From assembly GCA_963793605.1 (NCBI GenBank), contig CAWCAH010000003.1, positions 95,534-159,533 on the forward strand: a DNA stretch of 64,000 nt, written 5' to 3'. Both the position numbers and the translations under genes were made by a program. Source of the stretch: an uncultured Thermoleophilia bacterium. Its GTDB lineage: Bacteria; Actinomycetota; Thermoleophilia; UBA2241. Position 1 is the stretch's first letter. The number at the start of each line of letters is the position of its first letter. This document shows positions 11,307-39,166 of the stretch, in pieces. Below the pieces are notes generated by a model. The model saw only the letters and a list, made by a program, of their open reading frames with translations. It did not search any database and had not been told where the DNA came from.

Positions 11307-11309
11307 CGC

Positions 11310-13337: not shown

Positions 13338-13339
13338 CG

Positions 13340-13846
13340 ATGACCGACTTCGAACCGCGCATCACCGCCTTCGTCTGCAACTGGTGCACCTACACCGGCG
13401 CCGACCTCGCCGGCACCAGCCGCCTGCACATGGCGAGCAACGTGCGCATCATCCGGCTGCCCTGCACGGGCCGCATCGACCCGCTGTTCATCGTCAAGGC
13501 GTTCGAGCGCGGCGCCGACGGCGTCATCGTCAGCGGCTGCCACCCGGCCGACTGCCACTACACGTCGGGCAACTACCACGCCCGGCGGCGGTTCGCCGTG
13601 TTCCACGACATCATGGAGTTCCTCGGCGTCGACCCGCGGCGCATGACCTTCAGCTGGGTCTCCGCCAGCGAGGGCGCCAAGTGGAAGGACGTCGTCAACG
13701 AGGCCGTGGCCAACGTCCGCGAGCTCGGGCCGTTCGAGGCGTACCGGGCGCTGGCGCCCGACGCCGTGGAGCCGTGGCCGGCCGCCACCGACGGCCTGGC
13801 GGCAGCCGGCGTCCCGGCTCCCGCCACCGAGGAGGTGGCGTCATGA
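13340..13846 (+). CDS. mvhD: MvhD/FlxD-like methyl-viologen-reducing hydrogenase delta subunit homolog
   Basis: ITAFVCNWCTY...IRLPCTGRIDPLFIVKAFERGADGVIVSGCHPADCHY is the MvhD signature. Lies immediately after hdrA. Confidence 0.88.
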   Translation: MTDFEPRITAFVCNWCTYTGADLAGTSRLHMASNVRIIRLPCTGRIDPLFIVKAFERGADGVIVSGCHPADCHYTSGNYHARRRFAVFHDIMEFLGVDPRRMTFSWVSASEGAKWKDVVNEAVANVRELGPFEAYRALAPDAVEPWPAATDGLAAAGVPAPATEEVAS

Positions 13847-15901: not shown

Positions 15902-16729
15902 ACATCTACCAGCCACTGCTCACCACCGTCGCCGAGATGGTGGACGAGACCTCCGACACGCGCACGCTGAAGCTCGAGTTCCAGGACGACGCCGTGCGCG
16001 AGAGCTTCAACTTCAAGGCCGGCCAGTTCGGCGAGTACGGCGTGTTCGGCGCCGGCGAGAGCACGTTCTGCATCGCCAGCTCGCCGACGCGCGAGGGCTA
16101 CATCGAGTGCAGCTTCAAGAGCATCGGCAAGGTGACGAGCGCCCTGCGCGAGGTCAACGTCGGCGACACCGTCGGCTTCCGCGGCCCCTACGGCAACTGG
16201 TTCCCCGTGGACGACTGGAAGGGCAAGGACGTCGTGTTCGTCGCCGGCGGCATCGGCCTGGCGCCGGTCCGCTGCGTGATCTGGAACGTCCTGGACCGGC
16301 GCGACGAGTTCGGCGACGTCACTATCGTCTACGGCGCCCGCTCCGTCGACGACCTGGTGTACAAGCGCGAGCTGGAGGAGTGGGGCTCGCGCCCGGACGT
16401 CAAGATGGTCAGCACGGTCGACCCCGGCGGCGAGACCAAGGACTGGAAGGGCGAGGTCGGCTACGTCACGCCCATCGTGGAGAAGACGGCGCCGAAGGCC
16501 GACAACGCCGTCGCCGTGCTCTGCGGGCCGCCGATCGTCGATCAAGCTCACGATGCCGGTGCTGGAGAAGCTCGGGTTCGCCGACGACGCGATCTTCACC
16601 ACCCTCGAGAACCGCATGAAGTGCGGGCTCGGCAAGTGCGGCCGCTGCAACATCGGCCCCGTGTACGTCTGCAAGGACGGGCCCGTCTTCACCGCCGCCC
16701 AGATGAAGGAACTGCCGCCGGAGTTCTGA
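15898..16729 (+). CDS. FAD/NAD(P)-binding 2Fe-2S oxidoreductase (AsrB/FlxA/PyrK-like); one frame break near 16540
   Basis: GTGA overlap with the previous gene. FNFKAGQFGEY...GPYGNWF...VFVAGGIGLAPV is a ferredoxin-reductase fold. After ...AVLCGPPIV the frame changes. The protein continues IKLTMPVLEKLGF...RMKCGLGKCGRCNIGPVYVCKDGPVF (2Fe-2S motif) to the TGA at 16727-16729. Confidence 0.75.
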
Positions 16730-16767
16730 GCCGGACGCTCCGGCGCCTCGGCGCTGACCTCAAAACG

Positions 16768-16806
16768 GCGATGCGGCCGGCAGCCTCTCGGCGCCGGCCG
16801 CATCGC
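16768..16806 (+). terminator. GC-rich hairpin after the hdr/flx cluster
   Basis: GCGATGCGGCCGGC-(11 nt)-GCCGGCCGCATCGC forms a 14-bp perfect stem, 39 nt after the flxA-like stop. There is no clear T-tract. Confidence 0.5.
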
Positions 16807-16859
16807 GTTAGGTGAAGGCTATCGCCCGGCGCCTTCTCTGACGACCGCAAGGGCGTCCG

Positions 16860-17030
16860 TCACTGCAGCTCCTCCGGAGTCGCGTCAGGGAAGCGCCGAC
16901 TGATGCCGGCCCGGAGCAGCTCTCGGGGCTGCTCGGTGAGCTCGAACGCCTTGAGCAGTCGCTGCTCGGGGGTCATGCCGTGCAGCGCCGCCAGGTAGCG
17001 CTCGTGGTTCGGATGAGGCTTTGGGTCCAT
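16860..17030 (-). CDS. Small hypothetical protein (56 aa)
   Basis: Internal ATG of track ORF 16860..17138 (MDPKPHPNHERYLAALHGMTPEQRLLKAFELTEQPREL...). No recognisable family. Confidence 0.3.
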   Translation of the reverse strand: MDPKPHPNHERYLAALHGMTPEQRLLKAFELTEQPRELLRAGISRRFPDATPEELQ

Positions 17031-17140
17031 GCAGGCAGGATAGCACCCAGGTCGGACACCCGGGACGAGAGGCCGGCTTCTTCGCGCGCAGCATCGAGAA
17101 GCCGGCCTCCTCCTCGCCAGGGTGCCGGGAACCGCCACCG

Positions 17141-17551
17141 TCAGTGCGACTTGTGCACCCCGATGCGGTTGCCCTCCGTATCCTTGAAGAACCCGATCCA
17201 GCCGACCATCTCGCCCATGTCCTGCAACGGGCTGAGGACCTCGCCGCCGGCGTCGGCCGCCCGCTGGAGCATGCCCTCCGGGTCTTGGTCGGCGTTCAGG
17301 TAGATCTGGCAGCCGTCCATGCTCGGCCTCATGCTCTCGGTCTTCACGAGGTCGAACGCGACCGGCATGGGGCCATCGGGCGCCCCGCCCTCGGGCGCGC
17401 CCTCACCCGGCGGCTCGTCGGGGCCCGGCAGGGCGACTCCATCCATGCCGGGGATCGTGATGAACTCACGCTGCAGCACCGCGCCGTAGAACTTCATCGC
17501 GCGGTCGAGATCGGTCACCGGGATGTCGGCCCAGACGATCAGGTTGTCCAT
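17141..17551 (-). CDS. VOC/glyoxalase family protein
   Basis: MDNLIVWADIPVTDLDRAMKFYGAVL...GWIGFFKDTEGNRIGVH is a typical glyoxalase/bleomycin-resistance fold. Confidence 0.75.
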   Translation of the reverse strand: MDNLIVWADIPVTDLDRAMKFYGAVLQREFITIPGMDGVALPGPDEPPGEGAPEGGAPDGPMPVAFDLVKTESMRPSMDGCQIYLNADQDPEGMLQRAADAGGEVLSPLQDMGEMVGWIGFFKDTEGNRIGVHKSH

Positions 17552-17698
17552 CGTCGTCTCCTCACGTCGTCGGCGCCGCTGTGGGCGCGGCGCATGTGAG
17601 GGAGGTACCCGGAGAGGCCCGCTCCACACCCGTGAGGCGCCGACCGGGAGTTGACGCCCGTCAATGGTGTCTCGGCGTGGCGCTCCCATACTGTGCAG

Positions 17699-18112
17699 GT
17701 GACCCGCATCAAGCCGAGACTCCTCCTGGCCTGCGGCTGGGCCTCGCTCGGGCTCGGAGCCGCGGGCCTCGTGCTGCCGGTGCTGCCGACGGTGCCGTTC
17801 GTGCTGCTGGCGGCGGCGTGCTTCCTGCGTGGCTCGGAGAGGCACTACCGCTGGCTGGTCTCTCACCCCGTCTTCGGACCGCACATCAGCGACTACCTTG
17901 CCGGCAAGGGGCTCCGCCCGCGGGCGAAGGTCACCGCGCTCGTCACGCTCTGGGCGAGCGTGCTGCTGAGCGTCATCGTCTTCATCCCGCTCCTGGCGGC
18001 GGACGTAGTGGTGCTCGCCGTCGCGGCGGCGGTCAGCATCTACATCCTCCGGCTCCCGACCAACCGAAGCGGGCGCGGGGAGGCGACGGAAGACGACCGG
18101 CGCCGAGGCTGA
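17699..18112 (+). CDS. DUF454 (YbaN-like) inner membrane protein
   Basis: LGLGAAGLVLPVLPTVPFVLLAAACFLRGSERHYRWLVSHPVFGPHISDY matches the YbaN family. GTG 17699 chosen; ATG 17651 is an in-frame alternative. Confidence 0.7.
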   Translation: MTRIKPRLLLACGWASLGLGAAGLVLPVLPTVPFVLLAAACFLRGSERHYRWLVSHPVFGPHISDYLAGKGLRPRAKVTALVTLWASVLLSVIVFIPLLAADVVVLAVAAAVSIYILRLPTNRSGRGEATEDDRRRG

Positions 18113-18189
18113 CCGGACGGCGATCCGGCACGGACGCGAAGGCGCGGCCGCGCGAGCGCCGCACGTGGCGCTGCGATAGAGTCCGGCTC

Positions 18190-18651
18190 ATGAGAGGCTC
18201 GCCTCCCGATCGGACACGGACGCTCGTCCGCCTCGTCCTCGCGTCGCTCACGGCGGTGCTGGTGGCTGCCGCGATGCTCGGCATCGCGGCCTGCGGCTCG
18301 TCGGACGGCGACGCCGGGCAAGCCTCGCCGGCGCCGGTCAAGAGCGAGATCACCAGGTGGATGCCCAAGGACGCCTCGGCCGAGCCGCCCTGGAACGGCC
18401 GCTTCGTCCAGGTCAACGTGCGCGTTGCCAAGCCCGGCGCGATGGACCCCGCCGACTGGCGCGTGTTCGTCAACGGCAAGGAGCCGGAGCTGGAGAAGCC
18501 GCCGAGCATCCTGCCGTTCTCGCCCAGCGAGGCGACCGTCGCGTTCGTGTTCAGCGCTCCCTACGGCGACCTCGGCACCTACGAGTTCCGCGTGGTGTAC
18601 GCGCCCAAGGGCGGGCCGAAGGTCCAGCGGTCCTGGGAGTACAAGTGGTGA
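18190..18651 (+). CDS. Lipoprotein of unknown function
   Basis: Signal peptide with lipobox (LVAAAMLGIAACGSS). Confidence 0.6.
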   Translation: MRGSPPDRTRTLVRLVLASLTAVLVAAAMLGIAACGSSDGDAGQASPAPVKSEITRWMPKDASAEPPWNGRFVQVNVRVAKPGAMDPADWRVFVNGKEPELEKPPSILPFSPSEATVAFVFSAPYGDLGTYEFRVVYAPKGGPKVQRSWEYKW

Positions 18652-18688
18652 AGGCCGGCGCGCGGTCGTACCGCCGGCCCCAGCGGCT

Positions 18689-19561
18689 CTAGCTGCTCCG
18701 GCGGAGCGCCCGCCCGATGAACCTCGCCTCGGCGGGCGCCACCGTGTGGAAGAAGTCGTAGTCGTGGCCGCCGCCGCCGTAGTGGACGGACGCCGGCTCG
18801 GGCAGGGCGGCCTTCAGATAGGTCACGTAGCCGTAGAACGGGTCCTGCTTGCCGCAGTCGATGCGCACGGCACGCCGGCCAGTCGGTCGGCGTGCGCGAT
18901 GACGTCGTGCTCGGCGAAGTCGGCCGCGTCGTCGAAGGCGTCGCGCGGCCCCAGCATCATCGCGTCGTAGCTGGTCCACACCGCGGGCCCGCGGCGACCA
19001 CGGCGTCGAACAGCTTCGGCTGCGTCTCCGCCGCCAGCAGTGCGCCGTACCCGCCCATGGACCAGCCGATGATCGCGCGCCCGCGCCCGCCGCCGCCGAG
19101 CTTGTAAGCGGCGGGCGCACAGCGGGACCAGCTCCTCCAGCAGCATGCTGAGCCGGTCCTCGCCGGTCTTGCGCCGGTGCCAGTACGAGATGCCGCCGTC
19201 CACGCCGACCACGGCGTACGGCGGCGACTCGCCCTTCGCACCGCCGCCGCCACGAAGTCGGCGAAGCCCATCGGCGGGTCGCCGCCTCGGCCGGGCAGCG
19301 CGAAGCAGACGGGGAGCGGGTCGCCCGGCGCCGATCCCGGCGGCCAGGCGATGCTGTAGTCCACCGGCTCGTCGACGTACCGGGAGTCCAGCCGGAAGTC
19401 ACGCCGGGTGACGCGCGTCGCGCCGGGGACGTCCACGCCGACCGCGTCCCCGGCGGCGCCGAGCCAGTCCCTCCACGGCGCCGCCCGCCACGCGATGCCG
19501 CCGACCGACCAGCACCGCGGCGCGCGAGGCCGCCGCCGACAAGGAAGCCGCGGCGCGTCAT
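18689..19561 (-). pseudogene. Tat-signal alpha/beta-hydrolase (esterase D / mycolyltransferase-like), about 5 frame changes
   Basis: Conserved pieces are scattered over three minus frames: MTRRGFLVGGG; RDFRLDSRYVDEPVDYSIAWPPG...LPVCFALPGRGGD; VGVDGGISYWH...MLLEELVPL; AIIGWSMGGYGALLAAETQPKLF; WTSYDAMM...AEHDVIAHADRL; RIDCGKQDPFYGY...GGGHDYDFF. TAG stop. Confidence 0.6.
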
Positions 19562-19770: not shown

Positions 19771-20749
19771 GTGAGCCGAGGCGGACGACGAACGCACGAA
19801 GGACCGGCCGCCGAGGTGACCCCGGCTCTGCGTGACCTCGGCGCGGCCATCGGCGCGCCCGACTTCATCCTCCCCTGGCTCGACAGGCTCTATGACGAGG
19901 ACGACGTCGACCTGGTCCTCGCCGCCGCGGCCGGCGGCGCTCTCCGGCCGAGGCGGCCGGGCCGCCGGCGAACGCGCGCGCCTGGACCGCGCCTACCGCC
20001 GCGCCATCCTCGACCGGGACGAGGCCGGCGAGTACACGCCGGCCGACCTGCACACGCGGCTCGAGTACTGGGCCATGTTCGAGGGCTGGAAGGACGTGCC
20101 GCTGGCCGTCCACCGGCGGCTCGCCGACTGGGACGTCGACCACTACGCCGGCACGATCCGCGCCGACGTCGAGAGCGCTGCGCGACGGGCGCCCGAACGA
20201 CTCCTACGCGGCCACCTACACCTACGTGCTGCTCCACGAGGCCGAGGCGATCCTCGGCGCCCAGGCCGCACATCTACCTGTGGCCGTGCAACTGCCGCGC
20301 CATCGTCGGCAAGTGCCGCAAGCCCAGGGACGTGTGCCTGCGCTTCGAGAACGACCGCGGCGTTGGCTGGGAGATCTCCGCGGAGCGAGCGTTAAGGTCC
20401 TCCGCACGACCGACAAGGCGGGCCTGATGCACACGGCCGACTACGCCGGACGATCCCGCGGCCGCGACCTCCATCTGCAACTGCTGCACCGACTGCTGCT
20501 ACCCCCACCTCGCCGGTGAGCGACTGGGGGTGAGCGACGTGTGGCCGGTGCGCCGGTACGTCGCCCGCATCGACATGGACCTCTGCAAGAGCTGCGGACG
20601 CTGCGGCCTGCGCTGCCCGTTCGAGGCCATCGTCGCCGCGCCGACGGACGGCCGGCGCTCGACGCCCGCGCCTGTGCCGCGGCTGCGGGCTGTGCCAGAC
20701 CGGCTGCAGCACCGACGCCATCGAGCTTCTCTCCATCGGTGAGGACTGA
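19771..20749 (+). pseudogene. Cys-rich protein with a C-terminal 2x[4Fe-4S] ferredoxin domain, about 6 frame changes
   Basis: GTG 19771 follows GAGAGGAG. Conserved segments alternate among three frames: APDFILPWLDRLYDEDDVDLVL; RLDRAYRRAILDRDEAGEYTPADLHTRLEYWAMFEGWKDVP; YTYVLLHEAEAILG; HIYLWPCNCRAIVGKCRKPRDVCLRFEND; KVLRTTDKAGLMHTADYA; ICNCCTDCCYPH...IDMDLCKSCGRCGLRCPFEAI; CRGCGLCQTGCSTDAIELL. Confidence 0.55.
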
Positions 20750-20755
20750 GCACCC

Positions 20756-22246
20756 ATGGATCACGATCCGCTGCACGACTTCCAGCTGCTCATCCGCTCG
20801 CGGTACGGGGCGCTGCTCGTCGAGACCGCCGAGGACGACCGCGCCGAGGATCTCGCCACGCGGGCGGCCTGGCAGCTCCAGCTGCCGCTGTTCGTGTGGA
20901 GGCGCGCCACCGGGCTGTCCAGGGTGGGCGCGCCCAACAGCGTCTACGGCACGGCGGACCCGCGCAGCGCGCTGAGCCACGTCATCAACTCGGAGAGCCC
21001 GGCCCTGTACGTGTTCCACGGCCTGGGGCCGGACCTCGAGAAGCCTGACGTGGCCGACCTGCTGCGCGAGGCGGCGCGCCGACTCGCCGGCCGCTCGGGC
21101 GCCCTCGTCCTCACCGGCGAGAGCGTCAAGCTGCCGGAGTCGCTGCGCGCGGAGGTCGGGCCGCTCCGTCTGCCGCTGCCGGCGACGGAGGAGTACCGCG
21201 CGCTGCTCCGCCGCGTCGTCAAGGAGCTCTCCGGGCGGGCGGGCGTGCGGGTGTCGCTGACGCCGTCCGACGAGGACCGCCTGCTGGCCAACCTGCAGGG
21301 GCTCACTCTGGCCGAGGCGGAGAAGCTCCTCACCCGTGTGATGGTCGAGGACGGCAGACTCGACGCCGGAGACATCGGCCACGTCATCGAGGCGAAGCGG
21401 GAGCTCGTCGAGCGCGACGGCCTGCTGGAGTACCAGCCTGCGACCCAGTCCCTGGACGAGATCGCCGACCTCGTGCGCCTCAAGGAGTGGCTCGACAAGC
21501 GCAAGCTCTTCATGGAGGACCCGCAGCGCGCAGTGGACTTCGGGCTCGAGTTCCCCCGAGGCATCCTCCTGGTGGGAGTCCCAGGCTGCGGCAAGAGCCT
21601 CTGCGCCAAGGCGGTCGCGGCGGCGTGGGGACTCCCCCTCGTCAGGCTCGACCCCGGGGCGCTCTACGACAAGTACATCGGCGAGACGGAGCAGAACTTC
21701 CGCAAGGCGGTGGCCGCCGCGGACCGCCTCGCACCGCTGGTGCTCTGGATCGACGAGCTCGAGAAGGCGTTCGCCGCCGGCGGCGGGGACGAGGACGGCG
21801 GGACGTCCCTGCGTGTCCTGGGCGCGTTCCTCTCCTGGCTGCAGGAGCGGAAGGGGGACGTCTTCGTGGTCGCCACCGCCAACGACGTCCAGCGGCTGCC
21901 GGCCGAGCTGCTGCGCAAGGGCCGGTTCGACGAGACGTTCTTCGTCGACCTGCCGGACGAGGCGGCGCGGGCGTCCATCCTGAGCATCCACCTGCGCCGC
22001 CGCAAGCAGGCGCCGGAGCAGTTCGACCTGCTCGCTCTCGCGCGCGAGAGCGAGGGGTACAGCGGGGCCGAGCTGGAGCAGGTGGTGATCTCGGCCCTCT
22101 ACACGGCGTTCTCCGCCAAGACTCCGCTCACCACTGCCTTGTTGCGCGACGAGCTCAAAGCCACGCCACCCATCGTCTCCACGGCGCGCGAGAGGATCGC
22201 CTTCGTGCGCCAGTGGGCCGACGGCCGGACGGTGCCCGCGAACTGA
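20756..22246 (+). CDS. AAA+ ATPase (single C-terminal AAA module, Ycf46/CDC48-like)
   Basis: 496 aa. Walker A GILLVGVPGCGKS, Walker B LVLWIDELEK, second region of homology ATANDVQRLPAELLRKGRFDETFFVDLP. Confidence 0.85.
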   Translation: MDHDPLHDFQLLIRSRYGALLVETAEDDRAEDLATRAAWQLQLPLFVWRRATGLSRVGAPNSVYGTADPRSALSHVINSESPALYVFHGLGPDLEKPDVADLLREAARRLAGRSGALVLTGESVKLPESLRAEVGPLRLPLPATEEYRALLRRVVKELSGRAGVRVSLTPSDEDRLLANLQGLTLAEAEKLLTRVMVEDGRLDAGDIGHVIEAKRELVERDGLLEYQPATQSLDEIADLVRLKEWLDKRKLFMEDPQRAVDFGLEFPRGILLVGVPGCGKSLCAKAVAAAWGLPLVRLDPGALYDKYIGETEQNFRKAVAAADRLAPLVLWIDELEKAFAAGGGDEDGGTSLRVLGAFLSWLQERKGDVFVVATANDVQRLPAELLRKGRFDETFFVDLPDEAARASILSIHLRRRKQAPEQFDLLALARESEGYSGAELEQVVISALYTAFSAKTPLTTALLRDELKATPPIVSTARERIAFVRQWADGRTVPAN

Positions 22247-22252
22247 CCGGCG

Positions 22253-23689
22253 TCAGGGCGCCGGCACCACCGCGTCGAGCTGCTCGACGATGCCCTCGGG
22301 CAGCGACGCGACCTCGTGCGTCGCCAGGAGCTCGAGCGCCCGCCGGCGCGCCTTCTCGGTCGCGTCCAGCGCGCCGCCCTCGGCCCAGCGGTCGTAGCTG
22401 GCGCGGTTCAGGATCTTGCCGCGCCACTGCTCCTCGCGCAGGTGCTTGCGCGTGTGCCGCTGGCCGAGATAGTCGCCGCCGGGGCCGACGGCCTTGAGCA
22501 CGTCGACGGCCAGCGTCTCGTCGTCGACCTCTATCGGCCTGAGCAGGTGCCGGTTGCGGCTGATGAACTCGGCCACCAGGACGACCTCGGCGAGGGAGCC
22601 GGAGAGGCCGAAGTCCATGTAGCCCACGTCATGGTTGAGGTTGGCGCCCAGCTGCATGGAGAGCTTGGTGATCTCGTCGGCCTCCATGCCCGCCTGGGCG
22701 TCCACCACCTGCGCGTCGGTGTGGCCGCTGAACCCCCAGTTGGGGATGTCCAGCCACTTGGCCATCTCGCACTCCAGCGCGTACGCGCGGATGAACTCCG
22801 GCGAGTTGTACGACGACTGCGACGTCGCCATGTCGAGCGTGTTGGGGCCCTGGCCGATGACGAACGGGGCCCCCGGCGCACGCAGCTGGTGCATCACCAG
22901 GCCGAACAGCGCCTCGGCGATACCGAGGGTGATCTGGCCGGGCGTTGTGATCGGCGCGGTGCCGCCGGCGACCGGCGACGGGCAGTACGTGGACGGCACG
23001 CCCTTGTCGGCGCAGAAGAGCAGCTTGTCGACCGTCTCGTAGGGGTGCTTGAGCGGCGTGACCGGCTGGTTGTACATGATGAAGTACGGCTTGTCGCGAA
23101 GCGCCTGCTCGCCGCCGCGGACGGCGCAGGCCATGCGCCACATGGGCTCTACGGTCTCGACGCCGCCGGCGGTCATCACGAGCGGCTTGGTGGTGGCCGG
23201 GATCATCGCGCGGAACTGCTTGGGGTAGGCCTCCTGCGCGTCCATGCCGTCCGGGTACGCGCCCGACATGACGAAGTCGAGCTCGGGCAGCGAGTCGCAG
23301 AGGCGGGCCGCCTCGGCCACGTCCGCCATCTTGCCGAGGCGGCGCTCCCCGGTCTCGAGGTCGTGCAGGTGCATGACGTCCGAGCCGTTGCCGAAGTAGC
23401 TGCGGCGACCACCGAGGTCCATGGCGGGCTCGCCGGCGCGGTCGTAGACCACGAAGCTCGCCGGCACGGACTCACGCGCCTGCTCGACGAGCGCGGCCGG
23501 CACGTGCACGAGGCCGTCCGCGTCCCTGGTACAGCCGCCGTCCAGCATCACCTGCTCGCCCTCTTCGTGGAGGACGATCATGCCCATCTCCGAGAGGATG
23601 CCGAGGGCCGCGTCGTAGATGCGCCGCTTCTGGTCCTCGTTGAGGAAGCTGACGCGCCCGGCGCCGATCTCCTTGCTGCTGTCTGCCAT
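22253..23689 (-). CDS. MttB-superfamily methyltransferase, non-pyrrolysine paralog (quaternary amine:corrinoid methyltransferase-like)
   Basis: ATG 23689 follows GGGAG. Collinear with the other MttB-family genes here. His occupies the position of the Pyl codon (NWGFSG-H-TDAQVVDAQAG). No internal stop. Confidence 0.85.
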   Translation of the reverse strand: MADSSKEIGAGRVSFLNEDQKRRIYDAALGILSEMGMIVLHEEGEQVMLDGGCTRDADGLVHVPAALVEQARESVPASFVVYDRAGEPAMDLGGRRSYFGNGSDVMHLHDLETGERRLGKMADVAEAARLCDSLPELDFVMSGAYPDGMDAQEAYPKQFRAMIPATTKPLVMTAGGVETVEPMWRMACAVRGGEQALRDKPYFIMYNQPVTPLKHPYETVDKLLFCADKGVPSTYCPSPVAGGTAPITTPGQITLGIAEALFGLVMHQLRAPGAPFVIGQGPNTLDMATSQSSYNSPEFIRAYALECEMAKWLDIPNWGFSGHTDAQVVDAQAGMEADEITKLSMQLGANLNHDVGYMDFGLSGSLAEVVLVAEFISRNRHLLRPIEVDDETLAVDVLKAVGPGGDYLGQRHTRKHLREEQWRGKILNRASYDRWAEGGALDATEKARRRALELLATHEVASLPEGIVEQLDAVVPAP

Positions 23690-23777
23690 GGTCACTCCCG
23701 GAGCGAGATTGCCGACGAGGCGGCCCCGGACTGCTGCGCCGGGGGCCGCCTCGCCGAACACTACACTGTTTGCGGAG

Positions 23778-25247
23778 CTACTTCACTCCGAGTTCGTTCT
23801 CCGCGGCAGCGATAATCGACTTAAGTTCTGCCGAGACGCCCTCCGGCAGCGGCTCCGGCTGGTGCGTCTCCAGGATCCGCCGGGCCTCGGCGAGCGAACG
23901 GTCGTACAGCGTGGTCGACCCGGCGGCGGTCCACTCCTCGCGGACCCGCCGGTCGATGAGCTTCGAGCTCGACTGCCCGCGCATACCGGCGTACGTGTCG
24001 TCGTGCGAGAGGAAGTCCTTGAAGGGACCGATCTCGGCGATGACGTCGACCGACAGCGTCGCGTCCGTGACCGGGATGCCCGGCACGGTGAACTTGACCA
24101 TGCGCGCGAACTCCGCGTCCATGACCAGCTGCGCGTAATCGATGGTGACGCCCGACTCCAGCATCCCCAGCCCGTAGATCAGGTTGGCCCCTGCCAACGC
24201 CGGCAGCAGGCTGGTGATCGTCTTCTCGTGACCGGATTGGGCGTCCGCCACTTTGGAGTCGCCCTACGCACCGGCCACCCAGCTGGGCAGCAGGTAGAAG
24301 CGCGCGAGGCAGGCGACCCCGGCCCCGATCATGCCGCACTCGGGGCTGCCGACCGAGGCGCTGGCGAAGCGCAGGTCCAGCGCGGTCGTCGATGAGCCGT
24401 AGATGACCGGCGCGCCCCTCTTCGTGAGCTGCGCCAGCGTGATGCCGCTGAGCACCTCGGCGTTGTGCGTGACGAGCGTGCCGGCGAGCGAGACGGGAGA
24501 GGAGCCGCCGGCCATCGCCATGCTGAGCACGTTGACGGGGATGCCGGCGCGAGCGCCCTCGATGATGATCTCGCAGGCGTCCTTGACCAGCTTGAGCGGG
24601 CTCACCGGGCAGGTGAGGAAGCTGAGGATCGGGCGGCGGCGCAGCTGCTCCCGCCCCCCGACGATGGCCGCGGCCATGTCGATCATCTTGCGCGCGCAGA
24701 AGCCGCTGAGCGGGCCGATGGTCGCGTGCTTGGTGGTGTTGCTGAAGATCGCCTCGGCGTTGTGCAGCGCGGCCGTCTCCGGCGGCGCGTCGTGGGCGCC
24801 GAGCGGCCGCTCGACCACGTCGATCTCCGGCAGTGCGTCGATGATCTTCGTACAGTCGGCGACGTCCTGCTTGCGGCTCTCGTGCAGCTCGCCGGTGTAC
24901 GGGTCGACGACCTGGATGCCCTCGCCGAAGTTGGTGAAGCCGACCCGGCCGTCCTCGAGCACGACGTCCCTGGCCGGGTCGCGACCGCACAGGACGACGG
25001 TGGAGGGCGCCGAGCGGAGGGCGTCCTCGACGAGGTGCGCCGGCAGGCGCACCACGTTCTGCTCGCCGTCGACCTCGGCGCCGGCCGCCGCGAAGATCTC
25101 ACGGGCCTCGTCGTCCTCGACGAAGACGCCCGTGCGCGACAGCACTTCGAGCGTCGCGCCGTGGATCTCCCGCAGCTCGTCCTCCGTGAACACCTCGAGC
25201 CTGAAACCGCCGCTCTTGCGCGCTCCCGCGCGCGGGTTCCTTCTCAT
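23778..25247 (-). CDS. mttB: Trimethylamine:corrinoid methyltransferase with an in-frame TAG (putative pyrrolysine) at codon 328
   Basis: Track ORFs 24264..25247 and 23778..24251 are in the same frame. They are separated by TAG (plus-strand cta, 24264-24266) plus 4 sense codons. Joined product is 489 aa: ...ARFYLLPSWVAGA-TAG-GDSKVADAQSGHEK.... GAGGAGG RBS before ATG 25247. Confidence 0.85.
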
Positions 25248-25469
25248 CTCGACCTCCTCACCAGTTTGCCGCCGGGCCGTCGGCCCGGCGGCCCATCCGA
25301 CCGCGGTGAGCGGTCAATGCCACCATCATGGGGCAGAAAGCCGCCGGCCGGCTCAGCAAAGGGCGCAGTCTCGCCGGCCGGCGGCCTCCTCATGGCGAGT
25401 GCGGCAGCGCCGCTCGCCGCCCGCCCGCGCTGGCCGGCGCGGACGGGATCTTCTGACGACTTCGGCCGC

Positions 25470-26096
25470 CTACCCCACCAGCTCCTTCGCCCGCTCCACC
25501 GCCATGCCGGCGTTGGCGCCGTAGCCGTCGGCGCCGATCTCCTCGGCCCAGGCGGCCGTGACCGGGGCGCCGCCGACCATCACCTTGACGCTCTCGCGCA
25601 GGCCGGACTCCTTGAGACGCGCGATCGTCTCGGCCATGTGCGGCAGGGTGGTCGTGAGCAGGGCGCTCATGCCGACGATCTGCGGCTGGTGCTCCCGCAC
25701 GGCGGCGACGAAGGCCTCGGCCGTGACCCCGGTGCCGAGGTTGACGACCGTGAAGCCGGCGCCCGAGAGCAGCATGCCGACGAGGTTCTTGCCGATGTCG
25801 TGCAGGTCGCCCTCGACGGTGCCGATGACGACGGTTCCGAAGCCCGAGCCCTCGCCCTCGGCCATCAGCGGGCGCAGCAGGTCGAGGCAGGCCTGCATCA
25901 CCCGCGCGCTGAGCAGCACCTCGGGGATGAAGCACTCGCCCTCGCGCATGCGCGCTCCGACGACGTCCATGCCCGGCAGGAGCGCCTCGTCGAGGATCTC
26001 GCGCGGCGCCGCGCCGCTCGCGACGAGCGCCTGCGTCATCGCCAGGGCGACGGCCTCGTTGCCGTCGATGATGGACTGCTTGAGCTGGTCTTTCAT
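25470..26096 (-). CDS. Corrinoid (B12-binding) protein of the methylamine methyltransferase system (MtbC/MttC-like)
   Basis: 208 aa. B12-binding-2 helical cap followed by the DxHxxG motif (GDLHDIGKN) and SALLTTT...VMVGGAPV. Sits between mtbB and mttB. TAG stop. Confidence 0.9.
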   Translation of the reverse strand: MKDQLKQSIIDGNEAVALAMTQALVASGAAPREILDEALLPGMDVVGARMREGECFIPEVLLSARVMQACLDLLRPLMAEGEGSGFGTVVIGTVEGDLHDIGKNLVGMLLSGAGFTVVNLGTGVTAEAFVAAVREHQPQIVGMSALLTTTLPHMAETIARLKESGLRESVKVMVGGAPVTAAWAEEIGADGYGANAGMAVERAKELVG

Positions 26097-26101
26097 GCCG
26101 A

Positions 26102-27496
26102 TCAGCCTCCCGCCGTGCGTTCCTTGAACTTCTCGACACTGTTGATCGGCACGTCCAGCACACGGGCGATGTTGAACTTCGCCTCGATCTGGTTGGCCTG
26201 CCACGGCTGGCTGATCGCGTAGCTGTGCACGCGACCGAACCCGTGCTCGTTGCGCACGTCGGTCATCACGACCGGGTCGGAGAGATCGAACGGTGTCACG
26301 CCGAGCTTGTCGGCGACGTACTGCTTGGCTTCCTTGAGGCGCATGCCCCGAGTCATCTGCATACGGGCAACCAGGTCTCCGGCTGCGCGAATACCGCCGA
26401 TGCTCGCGGCTTGTGCGTGGGCGTTGTGCATCCCGTGGGGATCGCCCGAGCCCACCTACAACCCGTCGACGTGCAGCAGTTCGACGAAGGACTTCGCCGC
26501 GCGGCAGACAGCGTCGGAAGGCAGATGGACGAACATCGGCACGCCGCCGACGCCCATACCGGCGTTGGGGTGCACGGGGATCGTCGCCACCTCCATGCAC
26601 GGCTTGATGAGAGCGATCGTGCGCGCCATGTTCCAGGCGAGCGACTTGCCCGTGTTGATGTTGACCACAGGGCCGAACATGGTGGCGCCGGCCTCCTGGG
26701 CCAGCAGCAGCTGGTCCTTGGGCCACAGGCCGGCGAGGCGCTTGCCGCCCCACTCGAGCTCACCGTGCATGCCGAGCACGAACTCGCCGGCCATGCCCAG
26801 CTCGACGCCCATGTCCGGGTACTTCTCGCGGATGATCTTGGTGGCGCGCAGGGCGGCGAGGAACTCCGGGTCGCCCGAGGCGCCGGTGGTGTCCCAGTCG
26901 AGCGCGTCGGCTCCGGCTTCCCACTGCGAGTCGGCGAGCTTGACCATGTCGACCACGGCCATCTCGATCGCTTCTTCCTCAGCCTCCCGGGCCTCGGCGA
27001 TCTTGCCGAGCGGGAGCAGCTCGTTCCAGTTGTCGCAGGGGCCGTCGGGCTTGGAGTAGAGGCCGAGGTTGGTCATGACGCCGTACTGCAGCGGCGCGAT
27101 GGTCGCGAGCTGGGCGTCGTGCATGTACTGCGCCTCATAGGCGAGGATCGTGCGTACGACCTTGAGTGAGTAGTCGCCGACGCAGAGCTCGAGCAGGTCG
27201 GCGCCCATCCACTGCTCGTAGCTCTGCAGGTCCTGGATGCGGGTCGCGTGCGTCTTCATGCCGGTGCCGTCGCAGCTGAGGACGATCTCCTCGCCGACGT
27301 CGACGCCGATGAAGCGCAGCGGCGACGCGTAGATCTCGAGCAGGTGGTCGATCTCGTCGTCGGTCAGCAGCGGCACCTTGGCGCGCTTGGCCGCCACCTC
27401 CGAGCCGGCGACGAGATCCGCCCGGATCTCACTGCGCGTCAGCTGCGTGAAGGTACCGTCGCCCATGCGGGTCGGTATCCTGGGCTCGTTCGTCAT
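26102..27496 (-). CDS. mtbB: Dimethylamine:corrinoid methyltransferase with an in-frame TAG (putative pyrrolysine) at codon 347
   Basis: Track ORFs 26456..27553 and 26102..26455 abut in the same frame, separated only by TAG (plus-strand cta, 26456-26458). Joined product is 464 aa: MTNEPRIPTRMGDG...NAGMGVGGVPMF...ELLHVDGL-TAG-VGSGDPHGMH...AAGDLVARMQMTRGMRLKEAKQYVADKLG. It is collinear with MtbB as I remember it. Confidence 0.88.
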
Positions 27497-27545
27497 GCGC
27501 TCCCTCCCAAAGCGTGCGCCGGCGCGCCGCAGGGCGCGCCGGTCA

Positions 27546-27565
27546 CTAATCAACCGGTCAATTAG
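27546..27565. promoter_or_regulatory. 20-bp palindromic operator CTAATCAACCGGTCAATTAG upstream of mtbB (candidate TetR site)
   Basis: 8/10 palindromic. 17/20 identical to the site at 44137-44156 next to the TetR gene. Lies 50 nt upstream of the mtbB ATG. Confidence 0.55.
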
Positions 27566-27605: not shown

Positions 27606-28562
27606 TCAGCAACTGCTCGTCTCGCCCGTCGCGCGCGGCATGGACTCGAGGTACTCCTCGAGAGTCTCGGGGAATCCCGGGGCTCGCAGGTCGGTGCCGC
27701 AAGCCTCCTCGAGGAGCTTCGCGACCATGGCGTACTCGGCCGCGCCGCCGTAGCGGGCGCGGCCGCGGATGAACAGCTGCTCGGCGGTGCCGGCGATGTC
27801 CAGCGGCACGTCGAGGTCGCGGCCGAGCATCATGGCCACGCCGAGGTCCTTGAGGCACAGGTCGAACGAGAAGCCGACATCGTAGCTGCCGCCGAGGATG
27901 GTCGTGCTCTCCGTCTCGAGGATGAAGCTGTCGCCGGAGCTCGCGCGCAGGATCTCCCACGCCAGTCGCAGGTCGATGCCGCTCCGCTTGCACAGCATGA
28001 GCGCCTCCGCCGACGCCGCGATGTGGATGAAGGCCAGCATGTTGGACACGACCTTGATGCTCGACGCCTTGCCCAGTGCGCCCACGTAGAAGACGCTGCC
28101 GCCGACGGCGCGGAACACGCCCTCGTAGGTCCGGAAGACGGCCTCGTCGCCGCCGACGAGCACGGTGATCGTCCCGGAGGCGGCATTGTGCACACCGCCC
28201 GTGACCGGCGCCTCGAGCGTGTGGACGCCGCGCTCGTCCAGCAAGCCGCTGAGACGCTGCAGCTCACGCGGGTCGTTGGTGCTCATCTCGATCCACGCGG
28301 CGCCCGGCGCGAACCCCTCGAGCAGGCCGTTCGCGCCGGTGACGACGTCGGCGACCGCGGCGACGGACGGCAGACAGGTGATGACGGCGTCCGAGGCGCG
28401 GGCGGTCGCGGCCGGCGACGAGGCCCACTCCGCGCCCGACTCCAGGAGCCCCCCGGCCGCCTCACGGTCGAGGTCGTGGACGGTGACGTCGAACCCGGCG
28501 GACAGCAGATTCGCGGCAAGGTGGTGCCCGATGTGCCCAAGGCCGATGCAGCCGATCCTCAT
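27606..28562 (-). CDS. NAD(P)-dependent 3-hydroxyacid dehydrogenase (HIBADH/6PGDH-like family)
   Basis: MRIGCIGLGHIGHHLAANL Rossmann N-terminus. ...LEAPVTGGVHNAASGTITVLVGG...GKASSIKVVSNML is typical of the family. Confidence 0.85.
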   Translation of the reverse strand: MRIGCIGLGHIGHHLAANLLSAGFDVTVHDLDREAAGGLLESGAEWASSPAATARASDAVITCLPSVAAVADVVTGANGLLEGFAPGAAWIEMSTNDPRELQRLSGLLDERGVHTLEAPVTGGVHNAASGTITVLVGGDEAVFRTYEGVFRAVGGSVFYVGALGKASSIKVVSNMLAFIHIAASAEALMLCKRSGIDLRLAWEILRASSGDSFILETESTTILGGSYDVGFSFDLCLKDLGVAMMLGRDLDVPLDIAGTAEQLFIRGRARYGGAAEYAMVAKLLEEACGTDLRAPGFPETLEEYLESMPRATGETSSC

Positions 28563-29077
28563 GGCGTCACGTCCTGAAGCGGCTCCACACCGACGTCCTC
28601 GCCCGCCCACTCGAAGTTGGTCGTGTCCGTGCGCAGGATGTGCCAGGTGTCTGTGTACGCGATGCCCTCGATCTGGTCGAGGTCCTCGTTGAGGAACCTG
28701 TAGAGAGCCTCGTTGTCGGGCAGGTGCACCTCGATGAGGATGTCGAAGGAGCCCGTGGTGTAGCCGATGTAGGCTATGTTCTTCATGGCCGCAAGGCGCT
28801 CGCCCACGCCCCTGCCGTACCCGCGGTTCACGCGGATGCCGACCATCGCGTCCACGGGCAGACCGATCGCCGCCGGGTTCACGCCGGTCCAGGGCAGCAC
28901 GGCTCCCCGCTTGATGAGACGGTCCACACGATTGCGGACCGTCGGCTCCGTGACGCCGATGGAGCGCGCGATGCTGGCGTAGGACCGGCGCGCATTGGGC
29001 CGCAGCAGCTTGAGGATGCGGCGGTCCAGGTCGTCCAGCCGGCTCGTTCCGAAGGGCGCCTGCCCCCATCTGATCAT
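28559..29077 (-). CDS. Lrp/AsnC family transcriptional regulator
   Basis: LDDLDRRILKLLRPNARRSYASIARSIGVTEPTVRNRVDRL HTH followed by an RAM-type domain. ATGA overlap with the downstream dehydrogenase. Confidence 0.85.
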   Translation of the reverse strand: MIRWGQAPFGTSRLDDLDRRILKLLRPNARRSYASIARSIGVTEPTVRNRVDRLIKRGAVLPWTGVNPAAIGLPVDAMVGIRVNRGYGRGVGERLAAMKNIAYIGYTTGSFDILIEVHLPDNEALYRFLNEDLDQIEGIAYTDTWHILRTDTTNFEWAGEDVGVEPLQDVTP

Positions 29078-29154
29078 CGGCCCTCCTGGTCTCGCGACGA
29101 TCGTCGTTGCGGTGATCGCGACGCGGTGAAGCGCCGTGCGACACTGTAGCATTT

Positions 29155-29180: not shown

Positions 29181-29319
29181 AGAAGCAACGGTGTCTTGGC
29201 GATTCCGCCTTGCGAAACACTGCTTCACAGTCTACAGTGCCCCGGAAACGTGCGGCCGGGCGTCGGACTCCCCGCACGATACGCGCCCCACGAGGGCCCA
29301 CACGAACGGCGAGGGATCC

Positions 29320-30768
29320 ATGAGAGCGAAGACGGTGTGGCTGAGCGAGTCGGAGAAGAGTGCGATCGTCGACGAGGCTCTGGAGTTGCTCGCCGGCGTC
29401 GGCATCCGGCTCGCGGGGTCGTCGGTGCTGCCGCTGCTGTCGGAGCGCGGCGCCACGGTCGACACGGAGACCGGTATCGCGCGCCTGCCGCGCGAGCTCG
29501 TCGAGTGGGCGCTCTCACAATGCCCGCGCGCGGTCCGGCTGGCCGGCGCGACGCCCGACGACGACGTGCTGCTGGCGGAGGGCGAGCCCTTCCACTTCGC
29601 GAACAGCGGCTGCGTCGCCAAGACGCTCGACTTCCGCACCGGCGTCAGACGCGCCAGCACCCTGCAGGACCTGCGCGAGGGCACAGGCCTCCTCGACGAG
29701 CTGTCCGAGCTCGACGTGGTGTGGACCATCGTGAGCGCGTCCGACGTGCCCGTCGAGCAGCGCGAGCTCGTCGAGTACTTCGCGCTGCTCACCGAGACGA
29801 CCAAGCACGTCACCTTCGTGGACCCGCCGGACGACCCGGTCGCGGTCGGCCGCATCTGCGAGGTGCTCGGCGGCGACCTCGTCCGGTTCCGGGAGCGGCC
29901 GAGGATCTCGACCGTGCTCACGGCGGCGTCTCCCCTGCAGATCGACGGCCCCGCACTGGACATCCACATCGCCCTGGCCCGTCACGGTGTGCCCGTCCAC
30001 GCGTACTCCATGTCCATCGCCGGCGCCACCTCGCCGGTGACCCTGGCAGGGTCGGTCGTGCAGGGCGTGGCCGAGTTCCTGGGAGCCGCGACGGCGCTGC
30101 AGGTCGCGGCGCCCGGCGCCCGCCTCATCTTCTGTTTCGGCTCGGGTGTGCTGGACATGCTGCGCACGACGTTCTCCATGGGCAACATCGAGAGCGCGCA
30201 GATGGGCGCCATGGCCACCGAGGTCGGTCACTACCTCGGCGTGCCGACGCTCAACCCGGGGATGTCGACGGACGCAAAGCACGCCGGCCTGCAGGCGGGC
30301 TACGAGAAGGCCCTGAAGCTCGGCGCGGTCTGCACGGCGAGTCCGGACATCGTCACCGGGTGGGGGCTGATGGACTCGCACAACACCATGTTCCTGCCGC
30401 AGTCGGTGGTGGACAACGAGATGGCGGCCATGGTCCGGCGGCTCAACGCCGAGGTCGAGGTGTCTCACACCACGCTGGCGGCCGACTCTATCGGCAGGGT
30501 GGGTCCGGGCGGAGGGTTCCTCGGCGAGCGCGAGACCGCCAAGCGGATCCGGGCCGGGGAGCACTACCTGCCGACGGTGTCGAACCGCCTGTCCTTCGAG
30601 AAGTGGGCGGAGGAGGGCGCGACCGAGAACGACACCGCAGAGGCCCAGGTCGAGAGCCTTCTCGCCCGGCACCTGGAGCAGCCCTGTCTGGCTGCGGACC
30701 AGATCGACGACCTCGCCGCGGTCTGCGGCGTCGACGAGGCCAGCGTGCGCCGCGCCCGGCGCGACTGA
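29320..30768 (+). CDS. MttB-superfamily methyltransferase, non-pyrrolysine paralog
   Basis: 482 aa, collinear with the MttB family. Ser occupies the Pyl-equivalent position (NPGM-S-TDAKHAGLQAG). Confidence 0.85.
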   Translation: MRAKTVWLSESEKSAIVDEALELLAGVGIRLAGSSVLPLLSERGATVDTETGIARLPRELVEWALSQCPRAVRLAGATPDDDVLLAEGEPFHFANSGCVAKTLDFRTGVRRASTLQDLREGTGLLDELSELDVVWTIVSASDVPVEQRELVEYFALLTETTKHVTFVDPPDDPVAVGRICEVLGGDLVRFRERPRISTVLTAASPLQIDGPALDIHIALARHGVPVHAYSMSIAGATSPVTLAGSVVQGVAEFLGAATALQVAAPGARLIFCFGSGVLDMLRTTFSMGNIESAQMGAMATEVGHYLGVPTLNPGMSTDAKHAGLQAGYEKALKLGAVCTASPDIVTGWGLMDSHNTMFLPQSVVDNEMAAMVRRLNAEVEVSHTTLAADSIGRVGPGGGFLGERETAKRIRAGEHYLPTVSNRLSFEKWAEEGATENDTAEAQVESLLARHLEQPCLAADQIDDLAAVCGVDEASVRRARRD

Positions 30769-31886: not shown

Positions 31887-32667
31887 GTGACCGAGATCGG
31901 CGACTTCGCGCTGGACTACTTCTCCCTCAAGGGGACGCACTGCCATCGTCACCGGCGGCAACACGGGTCTCGGCCAGGCGTTCGCGGTGGCGCTCGCGGC
32001 CGCCGGGGCCAACCTCTTCGTGCCCAGCATCATGGACGACGACGGCACCACCGGCCCCCTGGTAGAGGAGCGCGGCGGCCGCTACGAGTTCGTCAAGGCC
32101 GACGTGACCGCGCCGGGCGCCCCGGCCGAGATCGTCGCCGCGTGCGTCGAGCGGCTCGGCTCGCTCGACATCCTCGTCAACAGCGCCGGCATCTGCCCGC
32201 TGGCGAGCGTGCTCGAGTTCGGCCGCGCGCAGTGGGACGCCACCGTGGCCGTGAACCTCACGGCCGCCTTCGAGATGGCCTACGAGTCCGCCAAGGTCAT
32301 GGTCCCGCAGGGCTCCGGCAAGATCATCAACATCTGCTCGCTGTTCTCGTTCCTGGGCGGCCGCTGGTCGTCCGCGTACGCGGCCACCAAGCATGGTCTG
32401 GCCGGCTTCACCAAGGCCTACGCCGACGAGCTGGCCGAGTCCGGCATCCAGGTCAACGGCATCGCGCCCGGCTACTACGCCACGGAGATCACGACGGCCA
32501 CACGCAGCGACCCGGTGACCAACCAGCGCGTGCTGGACCACATCCCGGCCGCGCGCTGGGGCGACCCCGCCGACCTCATGGGCGCCACCGTGTTCCTGGC
32601 GAGCAAGGCCTCCGACTACGTCAACGGCCACGTCCTGACCGTCGACGGCGGCTACCTCGTCCGCTAG
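31887..32667 (+). CDS. Short-chain dehydrogenase/reductase (KduD/FabG-like); one frame break near 31935
   Basis: GTG 31887 follows AAAGGAG. VTEIGDFALDYFSLKG is followed, after one extra base, by RTAIVTGGNTGLGQAFAVALAAAGA (TGxxxGxG), then NSAG, YAATKHGL (YxxxK) and PGYYATE. TAG stop. Confidence 0.8.
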
Positions 32668-35597: not shown

Positions 35598-35700
35598 CGC
35601 CGACGTAGGATGGAGCCGGGCCGGCCGACGGCCGGCCCGTGAGCACCGCCGGCGCGCTCATCGTCCACCGGCGGCCCATGCCCGCAAGCGAGGAGCGCGG

Positions 35701-39095: not shown

Positions 39096-39166
39096 GGGCT
39101 CGGCGCCGGAAGGACGTGTGATGCACTCGCTCTGCTGAAGACCTCACGCCGCCGCAGGGCGGCTTC

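Follow-up and report, generated by a model that had tools for sequence, protein, structure and literature searches.

We analysed a window of 64 kb (~70% guanine plus cytosine, G+C; positions 95,534 to 159,533 of contig CAWCAH010000003.1, assembly GCA_963793605.1) from an uncultured Thermoleophilia (Actinomycetota) bacterium of freshwater sediment. The subject is a putative operon for the demethylation of methylamines, in which two genes carry an in-frame TAG at the position of pyrrolysine (Pyl), the rare 22nd amino acid. Genes were called from third-position G+C coding potential. Six consecutive genes follow each other on the minus strand from 29152 to 22253, encoding an Lrp regulator, a dehydrogenase, MtbB, a corrinoid protein, MttB and a non-Pyl MttB paralogue. 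An earlier note on this DNA had described the last four, in that order, as a compact operon. All four are present, with the DxHxxG motif in the corrinoid protein, and Pfam and NCBIfam agree on them, but the note had left out the regulator and dehydrogenase genes that immediately precede mtbB on this strand (27606-29152). The distance of 88 nt that it gave from mttB to the paralogue is exact, from the mttB stop (itself a TAG, 23778-23780, minus strand) to the ATG at 23689. It had also placed the start of mtbB at 27553-27565, and an ATG at 27496 is likelier. The genes, recoded codons and spacers of the operon are the following.

26102-27496, minus strand: mtbB, predicted dimethylamine:corrinoid methyltransferase (PF09505, 543 bits; TIGR02368, 404.8 bits with a cut-off of 369.1)
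26456-26458, minus strand: Pyl codon TAG of mtbB, the first bases of a match to Rfam PYLIS_2 at 26359-26458
25470-26096, minus strand: corrinoid (B12-binding) protein gene (PF02607, 73 bits; PF02310, 99.8 bits; motif GDLHDIG)
25248-25469, minus strand: spacer of 222 nt between the corrinoid gene and mttB, strongly structured, with AGGAGG 6 nt before the mttB ATG
23778-25247, minus strand: mttB, predicted trimethylamine:corrinoid methyltransferase (PF06253, 297 bits; TIGR02369, 739.5 bits with a cut-off of 525)
24264-24266, minus strand: Pyl codon TAG of mttB, the first bases of a match to Rfam PYLIS_3 at 24167-24266
23690-23777, minus strand: spacer of 88 nt between mttB and its paralogue, with a G+C-rich hairpin of ~16-19 bp that lacks a U-tract
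22253-23689, minus strand: non-Pyl MttB-superfamily paralogue (PF06253, 260 bits), without in-frame stop

MtbB is full-length, as its match covers positions 4-462 of the 463 of the PF09505 profile and it passes the equivalog cut-off of TIGR02368; MttB, too, matches over its full length and above the equivalog cut-off of TIGR02369. Homology at the equivalog level suggests that the substrates of MtbB and MttB are dimethylamine (DMA) and trimethylamine (TMA), respectively.

Two conserved pyrrolysine codons

A search of species-representative genomes with MtbB as query returned 80 loci, nearly all of them from metagenome-assembled genomes (MAGs) of uncultured Thermoleophilia or 'Actinomycetota' from soils, peat, lake sediment and digesters, and we compared about 90 related loci in all. 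The nearest relatives of MtbB (97-98% identical) come from two Thermoleophilia MAGs (loci L001 and L047).

Both in-frame TAGs open a match to a PYLIS model, with 67 bits in mtbB (E = 5.6e-14) and 71.9 bits in mttB (E = 1e-12). Across the 80 loci, 83 of the 87 homologous matches of mtbB and 46 orthologues of mttB have TAG at the Pyl position, paralogues of less than 60% identity included. The substitutions between homologues fall mostly on third codon positions on either side of the TAG (74% downstream and 69% upstream in mtbB; 61% and 67%, respectively, in mttB), and the 3' parts of both genes must therefore be translated in frame. Short-read contigs of the source-study metagenomes reproduce the operon DNA at 99-100% identity with zero net indels, both TAGs are spanned by some independent short-read contigs, and the four genes are free of the frameshift artefacts that affect other genes of the window. 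The PYLIS matches, the conservation, the substitution pattern and the short-read contigs together establish the two TAGs as genuine, conserved and translated recoding sites.

As regards TAG as a stop codon, it also terminates the corrinoid gene (25470-25472, minus strand). At the stops of this gene and of mttB, TAG and TGA swap freely among orthologues, so that the lineage does not avoid TAG as a stop although it also reads this codon as Pyl. Read-through of the mttB and corrinoid-gene stops would end at the next in-frame stops, 101 and 38 codons on, respectively. A third candidate recoding site, an in-frame TAG between the short-chain dehydrogenase/reductase (SDR) gene at 31891-32667 and an FGGY kinase gene, was rejected: these are two adjacent genes and the SDR gene ends normally.

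The corrinoid gene is an optional insert

The protein encoded between mtbB and mttB has the general make-up of a methyl carrier, a B12-binding_2 cap followed by a Rossmann B12-binding domain with DxHxxG. Its gene starts 5 nt past the mtbB stop and has its ribosome-binding site within mtbB. The protein scored below every specific NCBIfam cut-off, with 219.7 bits for MtgC_2 (cut-off 370), 194.6 for the pyl_corrinoid family TIGR02370 (215.3) and 191.3 for MtbC, NF041607 (350), and we therefore regard it as a generic B12-binding carrier that is not assignable to MtbC, MttC or MtgC. It is 55% identical to the mttB-adjacent corrinoid protein of a Desulfobulbaceae locus (L076). Used as a query against the window, it matches one place only, its own gene.

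The corrinoid gene occurs in eight of the ~45 syntenic loci (the window and seven others), and in the operons that lack it mtbB and mttB are 5-60 nt apart. A strain variant that co-occurs with the window strain in source metagenome X1 has a DNA joint from 25241 to 26102, which takes mtbB straight to mttB. This variant is without the 860 bp of the corrinoid gene and spacer, and its mtbB and mttB are joined through the 8 letters GATCATGG (DNA run X1; RNA runs X31 and X35). The junction shows that the insert has precise boundaries, and its presence in X1 that the gene is polymorphic (present or absent) within the population itself. What is conserved is the core of mtbB, mttB and the paralogue with histidine at the Pyl position, into which the corrinoid gene is optionally inserted.

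The earlier note had reasoned that this one corrinoid protein would have to serve the methyltransferases of DMA, TMA and possibly a quaternary amine. The comparison does not support this: because most orthologous operons lack the gene, its product cannot be the obligatory carrier, and relatives encode other corrinoid proteins. Those found near mtbB paralogues are 36-46% identical to the window protein.

A paralogue with histidine in place of pyrrolysine

The last gene of the operon encodes a full-length MTTB fold without Pyl, which places it in the non-Pyl MttB superfamily; its TIGR02369 score (318.5) is under the cut-off of 525. Histidine occupies the position equivalent to Pyl (CAC, 22721-22723), and CAC is also found there in 23 related loci. 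The best relatives of solved structure, MtgB (163 bits) and Methanosarcina barkeri MttB (156 bits), are equally distant from it. The His paralogue would be a third substrate:corrinoid methyltransferase (MT1) and probably acts on an amine other than DMA and TMA.

Transcripts of the operon genes in sediments and soils

In four metatranscriptomes, from sediment and soil, RNA-library contigs 85-99% identical to the operon cover all four genes. Two of these metatranscriptomes have a contig that bridges the 3' end of mtbB and the 5' end of mttB directly, as expected where the corrinoid gene is missing. The contigs thus support co-transcription of the two genes in relatives, and one transcript of all four genes in the window strain is possible.

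Partner genes at unlinked loci of relatives

Scanned with Pfam, none of the open reading frames (ORFs) of the window that have coding potential matched MtmB, Pterin_bind, URO-D, MtrH, RACo or a Pyl protein. The same ORFs gave zero matches to PF00809, PF01208 and PF02007, that is, no second methyltransferase (MT2) clustered with the operon. There is no second corrinoid protein in the 64 kb, and ARAGORN called no tRNA in the window, tRNA-Pyl included. With tblastn, neither the PylSc, PylB, PylSn, PylC, PylD and RACo seeds from the Desulfobulbaceae Pyl cluster (L076) nor a Thermoleophilia URO-D-family seed (L041) and an MtmB-family seed matched the window. The activase family RamA/RACo (COG3894) gave no Pfam match in the window and no tblastn match in any Thermoleophilia locus, so that no clustered activase was found. 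The absence of mtmB, a second corrinoid protein, an MT2, RamA and pyl genes had been described from the window before, and Pfam, ARAGORN and tblastn are all negative in agreement. The possibility that a nearby unassigned gene might be the missing methyltransferase or activase found no candidate in the Pfam scans of the window ORFs. In the relatives, the 10 kb on either side of each Thermoleophilia mtbB hold no tRNA-Pyl, pyl gene or RACo, and none of the 23 recurrent neighbour families of the mtbB paralogues is an MT2 or an activase by Pfam; these families are unrelated to methyl transfer.

The missing decoding genes were found at other loci of the lineage. An exhaustive search of the representative genomes with a bacterial PylSc as query revealed a distinct high-G+C clade, which a follow-up search extended to hundreds of members and two members of which are named Thermoleophilia or Actinobacteria PylS by NCBI. 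The PylSc P0377 is encoded on contig CAVPCT010000003.1 (1,137,818 bp) of MAG MFD00032.bin.2.59, and the same MAG has the syntenic operon on a separate contig, CAVPCT010000004.1 (L054). A complete cassette is present at locus L085 (71% GC), which within 10 kb holds pylSc (312 bits, cut-off 178), pylSn (123, cut-off 51), pylB (444, cut-off 348), pylC (338, cut-off 248), pylD (208, cut-off 150), tRNA-Pyl(CUA) and a further corrinoid protein gene. The upstream synteny of L085 matches that of a Thermoleophilia MAG locus (L084). The bacterial-type split of PylS into PylSn and PylSc is thus also found in the Thermoleophilia lineage. Because the pyl cassette and other corrinoid proteins occupy unlinked loci in relatives, we read the absence of partners from the window as a dispersed gene organisation. 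Of the earlier description of a compact operon lacking its partners, the lack is borne out for the window, whereas the idea of a self-contained system is not supported by the comparison with relatives.

One candidate, P0024, was rejected as a Thermoleophilia PylSc. It was the highest-GC candidate from a Desulfobulbaceae query whose best 120 matches were all deltaproteobacterial-like, and because the mtbB that it adjoins is 79% identical to that of Desulfobulbaceae, it is not of the Thermoleophilia lineage.

The context of pylSc in Thermoleophilia is conserved and of a housekeeping kind, with TldD/PmbA, OsmC and Orn/Lys/Arg decarboxylase genes. At L084 (8919-10858) and L085 (8513-10455) the gene upstream, for an N-acetylmuramoyl-L-alanine amidase, shares its last 4 nt with pylSc. 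In L085 the other genes are 3-9 kb from pylSc (pylSn at 13881-14207, pylT at 15237-15309, pylD/C/B at 16412-19535); in L084 another mtbB and transport genes replace the remaining pyl genes. A Thermoleophilia MAG locus (L049) encodes at 9857-11230 (minus strand) an MtmB-family protein (PF05369, 279 bits) without in-frame stop, a non-Pyl MtmB homologue, whose gene directly adjoins one for a corrinoid protein (11278-11913, minus strand).

A conserved block around the operon

The operon is part of a block conserved in ~45 loci. One strand carries genes for an FAD oxidase, an FGGY kinase, an SDR protein, a dehydrogenase and an MttB-family protein, and the opposite strand those for Lrp, the optional dehydrogenase, MtbB, the optional corrinoid protein, Pyl-MttB and non-Pyl MttB. 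At the end of the block an optional AAA+ ATPase gene and then a gene for an iron-sulfur (Fe-S) protein are convergent with the operon. In the window the flanking genes are these.

29191-30768, plus strand: divergent non-Pyl MttB-family gene (PF06253, 238 bits), in the conserved syntenic block
28559-29152, minus strand: Lrp/AsnC-family regulator (PF13404 and PF01037), the first of the minus-strand string of genes, transcribed away from the MttB-family gene at 29191
27606-28571, minus strand: 3-hydroxyisobutyrate-dehydrogenase-like NAD-binding dehydrogenase (PF03446 and PF14833), an optional gene
20756-22246, plus strand: AAA+ ATPase (PF00004 and PF17862), convergent with the operon end, a variable neighbour
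19837-20728, plus strand: Cys-rich Fe-S protein gene with a C-terminal 2x[4Fe-4S] domain, lineage-specific, flanking the operon end

The MttB-family gene at 29191-30768 is followed by the dehydrogenase, SDR, FGGY kinase and FAD oxidase genes. The Lrp regulator is kept upstream of mtbB in most related loci, the dehydrogenase stands between regulator and mtbB only in the window and in L010, L020, L021, L023 and L077, and the AAA+ ATPase is present in about half of the syntenic loci.

The Fe-S protein of ~320 residues carries the motifs CxCRxxxGxCRKPxxVCL and CNCCTxCC in its N-terminal part; Pfam Fer4 families match residues 255-312 only, and the N-terminal ~250 residues have no Pfam match. Only ~606 homologues were found, the best 120 of which are at least 58% identical, in keeping with a lineage-restricted protein. 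In the loci compared its gene always separates the end of the mtbB operon from an esterase gene and a cluster of the Hdr/Flx-like kind. In the window the tblastn pieces of this gene are spread over three reading frames. The window differs from short-read contigs of the same population by 7-8 single-base indels, and because these coincide exactly with the frame changes, we attribute the breaks to long-read assembly errors and not to a pseudogene; intact orthologues exist in L030 (12982-14133, minus strand) and L017 (14534-16003, minus strand).

Probably an ordinary methylamine system with scattered parts

Our results make it likely that this is a functional operon for Pyl-dependent demethylation of methylamines, an ordinary system whose partners are unclustered and encoded at other loci. 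MtbB would take a methyl group from DMA and MttB from TMA, each protein being made full-length through one UAG read as Pyl. The Pyl residue would activate the amine, and a small corrinoid protein of the His-on type, in its Co(I) state, would receive the methyl group; the protein encoded between mtbB and mttB is one possible acceptor of this kind. Further corrinoid proteins, and the genes for Pyl synthesis and decoding, would be provided by other loci of the lineage. A second methyltransferase, also encoded elsewhere, would hand the methyl group on from the corrinoid protein. By analogy with other bacterial systems the final acceptor is most likely tetrahydrofolate; coenzyme M (CoM) seems an unlikely one because the host is a 70% G+C actinobacterium. 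We infer the existence of an activase, which would re-reduce the oxidised corrinoid and whose gene would also lie elsewhere. The His paralogue would probably take its methyl groups from a different amine, with a corrinoid partner that is either shared with the other two enzymes or separate.

Several observations weigh against such a system. The pyl genes were seen in relatives, and it is from these that we infer their presence in the genome of the window itself. TAG is the ordinary stop of eight of the 50 window genes (16%), the corrinoid gene and mttB among them, so that Pyl decoding must be conditional or context-dependent. Neither the window nor the 10 kb around any mtbB of the ~90 loci yielded an MT2, RamA or RACo, except for one URO-D case: in L041 (Thermoleophilia UBA2241) a URO-D-family gene immediately precedes a corrinoid gene at a distance of 8 kb from mtbB. 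Its product matches PF01208 with 134 bits and MtaA/CmuA with 86.7 against a cut-off of 235.4, and being so far under this cut-off the gene is a candidate MT2, not a proven one. As for expression, metatranscriptome contigs may contain contaminating DNA, no RNA contig was found across the 88-nt spacer when we looked for one, and both spacers of the operon are strongly structured, so that a single four-gene transcript is no more than possible (222-nt spacer, -145 kcal/mol, z = -4.6; 88-nt spacer, -53.4 kcal/mol, z = -4.9, both relative to shuffled controls). The missing bridge over the 88-nt spacer is probably due to strain divergence of the spacer.

The points on expression could also mean that the four genes are not one unit but three merely adjacent modules (mtbB plus corrinoid gene; mttB; the His paralogue) with separate expression, each using a different corrinoid protein from elsewhere. 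We hold this to be unlikely, though it deserves consideration. The folding of the spacers, far stronger than in the controls, and the UUUCU that follows one hairpin of the 222-nt spacer would fit separate transcripts, as would the uncrossed 88-nt spacer, and the several divergent corrinoid paralogues of the lineage could supply each enzyme with its own carrier. Yet mtbB and mttB are only 5-60 nt apart in most relatives and are bridged there by RNA-library contigs, the order mtbB-mttB-(His)mttB is kept in more than 20 loci, and no promoter-like site or canonical terminator was called inside the operon on the minus strand. The co-transcription assumed by the earlier note is supported for mtbB and mttB in relatives; in the window it would have to cross two strongly structured spacers.

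A second alternative keeps the operon as a minimal and self-contained system with a non-canonical back end, in which the in-operon carrier is shared by MtbB, MttB and the His paralogue, the Fe-S protein, with or without the AAA+ ATPase, acts as activator, and the MT2 or the acceptor belongs to an unrecognised family. We find this improbable. It would account for the absence of RamA/RACo from the window and from every related locus searched, and the Fe-S gene does stay at the end of the mtbB operon where mttB, the paralogue and the AAA+ gene vary (L028, L029, L030, L011, L017 and L089). The protein also resembles archaeal RamA in its C-terminal 2x[4Fe-4S] ferredoxin domain, the only part that matches TIGR04270, weakly and locally (21 bits against a cut-off of 500), and its 250 N-terminal residues have no Pfam family. 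Against this reading, the protein is too short for an ASKHA ATPase domain. Moreover, the Fe-S gene is just as constantly beside the esterase gene and the Hdr/Flx-like cluster, and because all compared loci come from one lineage its adjacency to the operon may be inherited gene order. About half of the loci have no AAA+ gene, most orthologous operons do without the corrinoid gene, whose product therefore cannot be an obligatory shared carrier, and the lineage has other corrinoid proteins and a URO-D-family gene. The idea that the AAA+ ATPase and the Fe-S protein form a hidden activase was set aside, since their linkage is inseparable from inherited synteny within one lineage. We give little credence to the broader proposal that Thermoleophilia, a class widespread in soil and sediment, demethylate DMA and TMA with Pyl enzymes but without a RamA-type activase or a recognisable MT2, the Fe-S protein with its three motifs (with or without the AAA+ ATPase) being the reductive activator and the His paralogue taking the next amine; monomethylamine would be an example, suggested because no Pyl-type mtmB was seen.

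Finally, the possibility that the TAGs are true stops, which would make mtbB and mttB truncated relics or split genes devoid of Pyl chemistry, could appeal to the normal use of TAG as terminator (two of the cases being in the operon) and to the window having no pyl gene, but it is largely refuted and very hard to sustain, as TAG is kept at the exact Pyl position in homologues that have diverged to less than 60% identity, the segments 3' of the TAGs stay in frame and evolve as coding sequence, the lineage has a full pyl cassette with tRNA-Pyl and, in one MAG, pylSc together with the syntenic operon, and transcripts were detected.

Relation to known systems

MtbB and MttB are ordinary members of their families, and the difference from the arrangements of methanogens and Desulfobulbaceae is organisational, in that MT1 operon, pyl cassette and other components are not linked to each other. 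As in the DMA and TMA systems of Methanosarcina barkeri, with which the two enzymes are orthologous at the NCBIfam equivalog level, each gene has one in-frame UAG at the homologous position with a match to a PYLIS model, and a small corrinoid protein with DxHxxG is encoded beside the MT1 genes. Methanogen operons have one cognate carrier for each MT1, whereas here a single corrinoid gene stands between two MT1 genes, most relatives have none, and MtbA, RamA and a permease are not found nearby.

Among bacteria, Pyl clusters are known from Acetohalobium arabaticum, Bilophila wadsworthia and Desulfitobacterium hafniense. The Desulfobulbaceae locus L076 shares with the window a bacterial Pyl-mttB and Pyl-mtbB, but it joins them in one 15-kb cluster (mttB, corrinoid gene, pylT, corrinoid gene, pylSc, pylB, pylSn, pylC, pylD and mtbB, with RACo further on), whereas Thermoleophilia keep the pyl cassette apart from the MT1 operon, and their loci gave no RACo when searched. 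The His paralogue aligns end to end with the glycine betaine enzyme MtgB of D. hafniense (DSY3156; PDB 2QNE and 9YCE). It differs from it in the residue at the Pyl position, which is Leu in MtgB, Pyl in MttB and His in the paralogue, and in its place inside a Pyl operon instead of beside an MtgA/MtgC pair.

Pyrrolysine use is regarded as a trait of methanogens, a few Firmicutes and a few Deltaproteobacteria. We found mtbB and mttB with a conserved UAG, and a complete pyl cassette, to be common in uncultured Thermoleophilia of soils, peat, lake sediment and digesters. Such organisms could rival methylotrophic methanogens for DMA and TMA, and so affect the methane output of wetlands. A 2022 survey gives PylRS in only two Actinobacteria (PMC9630628), and a literature search on pyrrolysine and Thermoleophilia returned nothing relevant. 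At Stordalen Mire, expression of mttB and mtbB of the Pyl type has been reported for some Actinobacteriota MAGs (Ellenbogen et al., mSystems 2023, PMC10805028). This is the same kind of gene pair in the same phylum, and two of our loci from that site, palsa_645 (L031) and bog_752 (L032), carry the syntenic block with MtbB proteins 81-84% identical. That study screened bacteria for MT1 marker genes only, and it does not describe how the operon is built, that its corrinoid gene is optional, the His paralogue or where the pyl genes lie.

There are also lessons for annotation: gene callers split Pyl genes, partner genes may be unclustered, and in long-read MAGs frameshift artefacts can stand beside genuine recoding sites.

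Other genes of the window

The earlier note had listed the two MttB-family genes of the operon. They stand, and the window has four further non-Pyl genes, all for full-length MTTB-family proteins, that it did not mention, which brings the MTTB-family genes to six and sets the operon in a region rich in this superfamily. Besides the gene at 29191-30768 these are the following.

40407-41852, plus strand: further non-Pyl MttB-family gene, full-length MTTB family, with Lrp, PanB-like and aminotransferase neighbours
41982-43343, plus strand: further non-Pyl MttB-family gene, full-length MTTB family, with Lrp, PanB-like and aminotransferase neighbours
61091-62485, plus strand: further non-Pyl MttB-family gene, with GntR, enolase-superfamily, ornithine-cyclodeaminase and peptide ABC transporter neighbours

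The PanB-like gene (38263-39092) beside two of these paralogues was considered as a folate-linked partner and rejected, its product being a homologue of ketopantoate hydroxymethyltransferase (336 bits) and not a methylcorrinoid methyltransferase.

Apparent frameshifts, seen as split or out-of-frame translations, affect panB (38263-39092), the aminotransferase gene at 39140-40274, the aldehyde:ferredoxin oxidoreductase gene at 44256-45999, the gene of an NAD-binding protein at 15889-16726 and the MttB-family gene at 41982-43343.

On the plus strand, a cluster of HdrC-, HdrB-, HdrA- and MvhD-like genes, followed by those of two Fe-S proteins and an FAD/NAD-binding protein, occupies 9523-16729. 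It is an electron-bifurcation module of the Flx/Hdr type and is syntenic in L088 and L089. Together with the aldehyde:ferredoxin oxidoreductase and the electron-transfer flavoprotein genes (35695-37520), this module suggests an anaerobic or facultative lifestyle.

The mtbB family itself is expanded in some relatives. One contig of an Actinomycetes/Thermoleophilia MAG (CAVRZA010000002.1, L039) has four mtbB-family copies in 21 kb, and many other MAGs have a second mtbB paralogue of 56-60% identity. This second paralogue is usually preceded by a gene for a DAO-type FAD oxidoreductase, the commonest of its neighbour families (13 loci).

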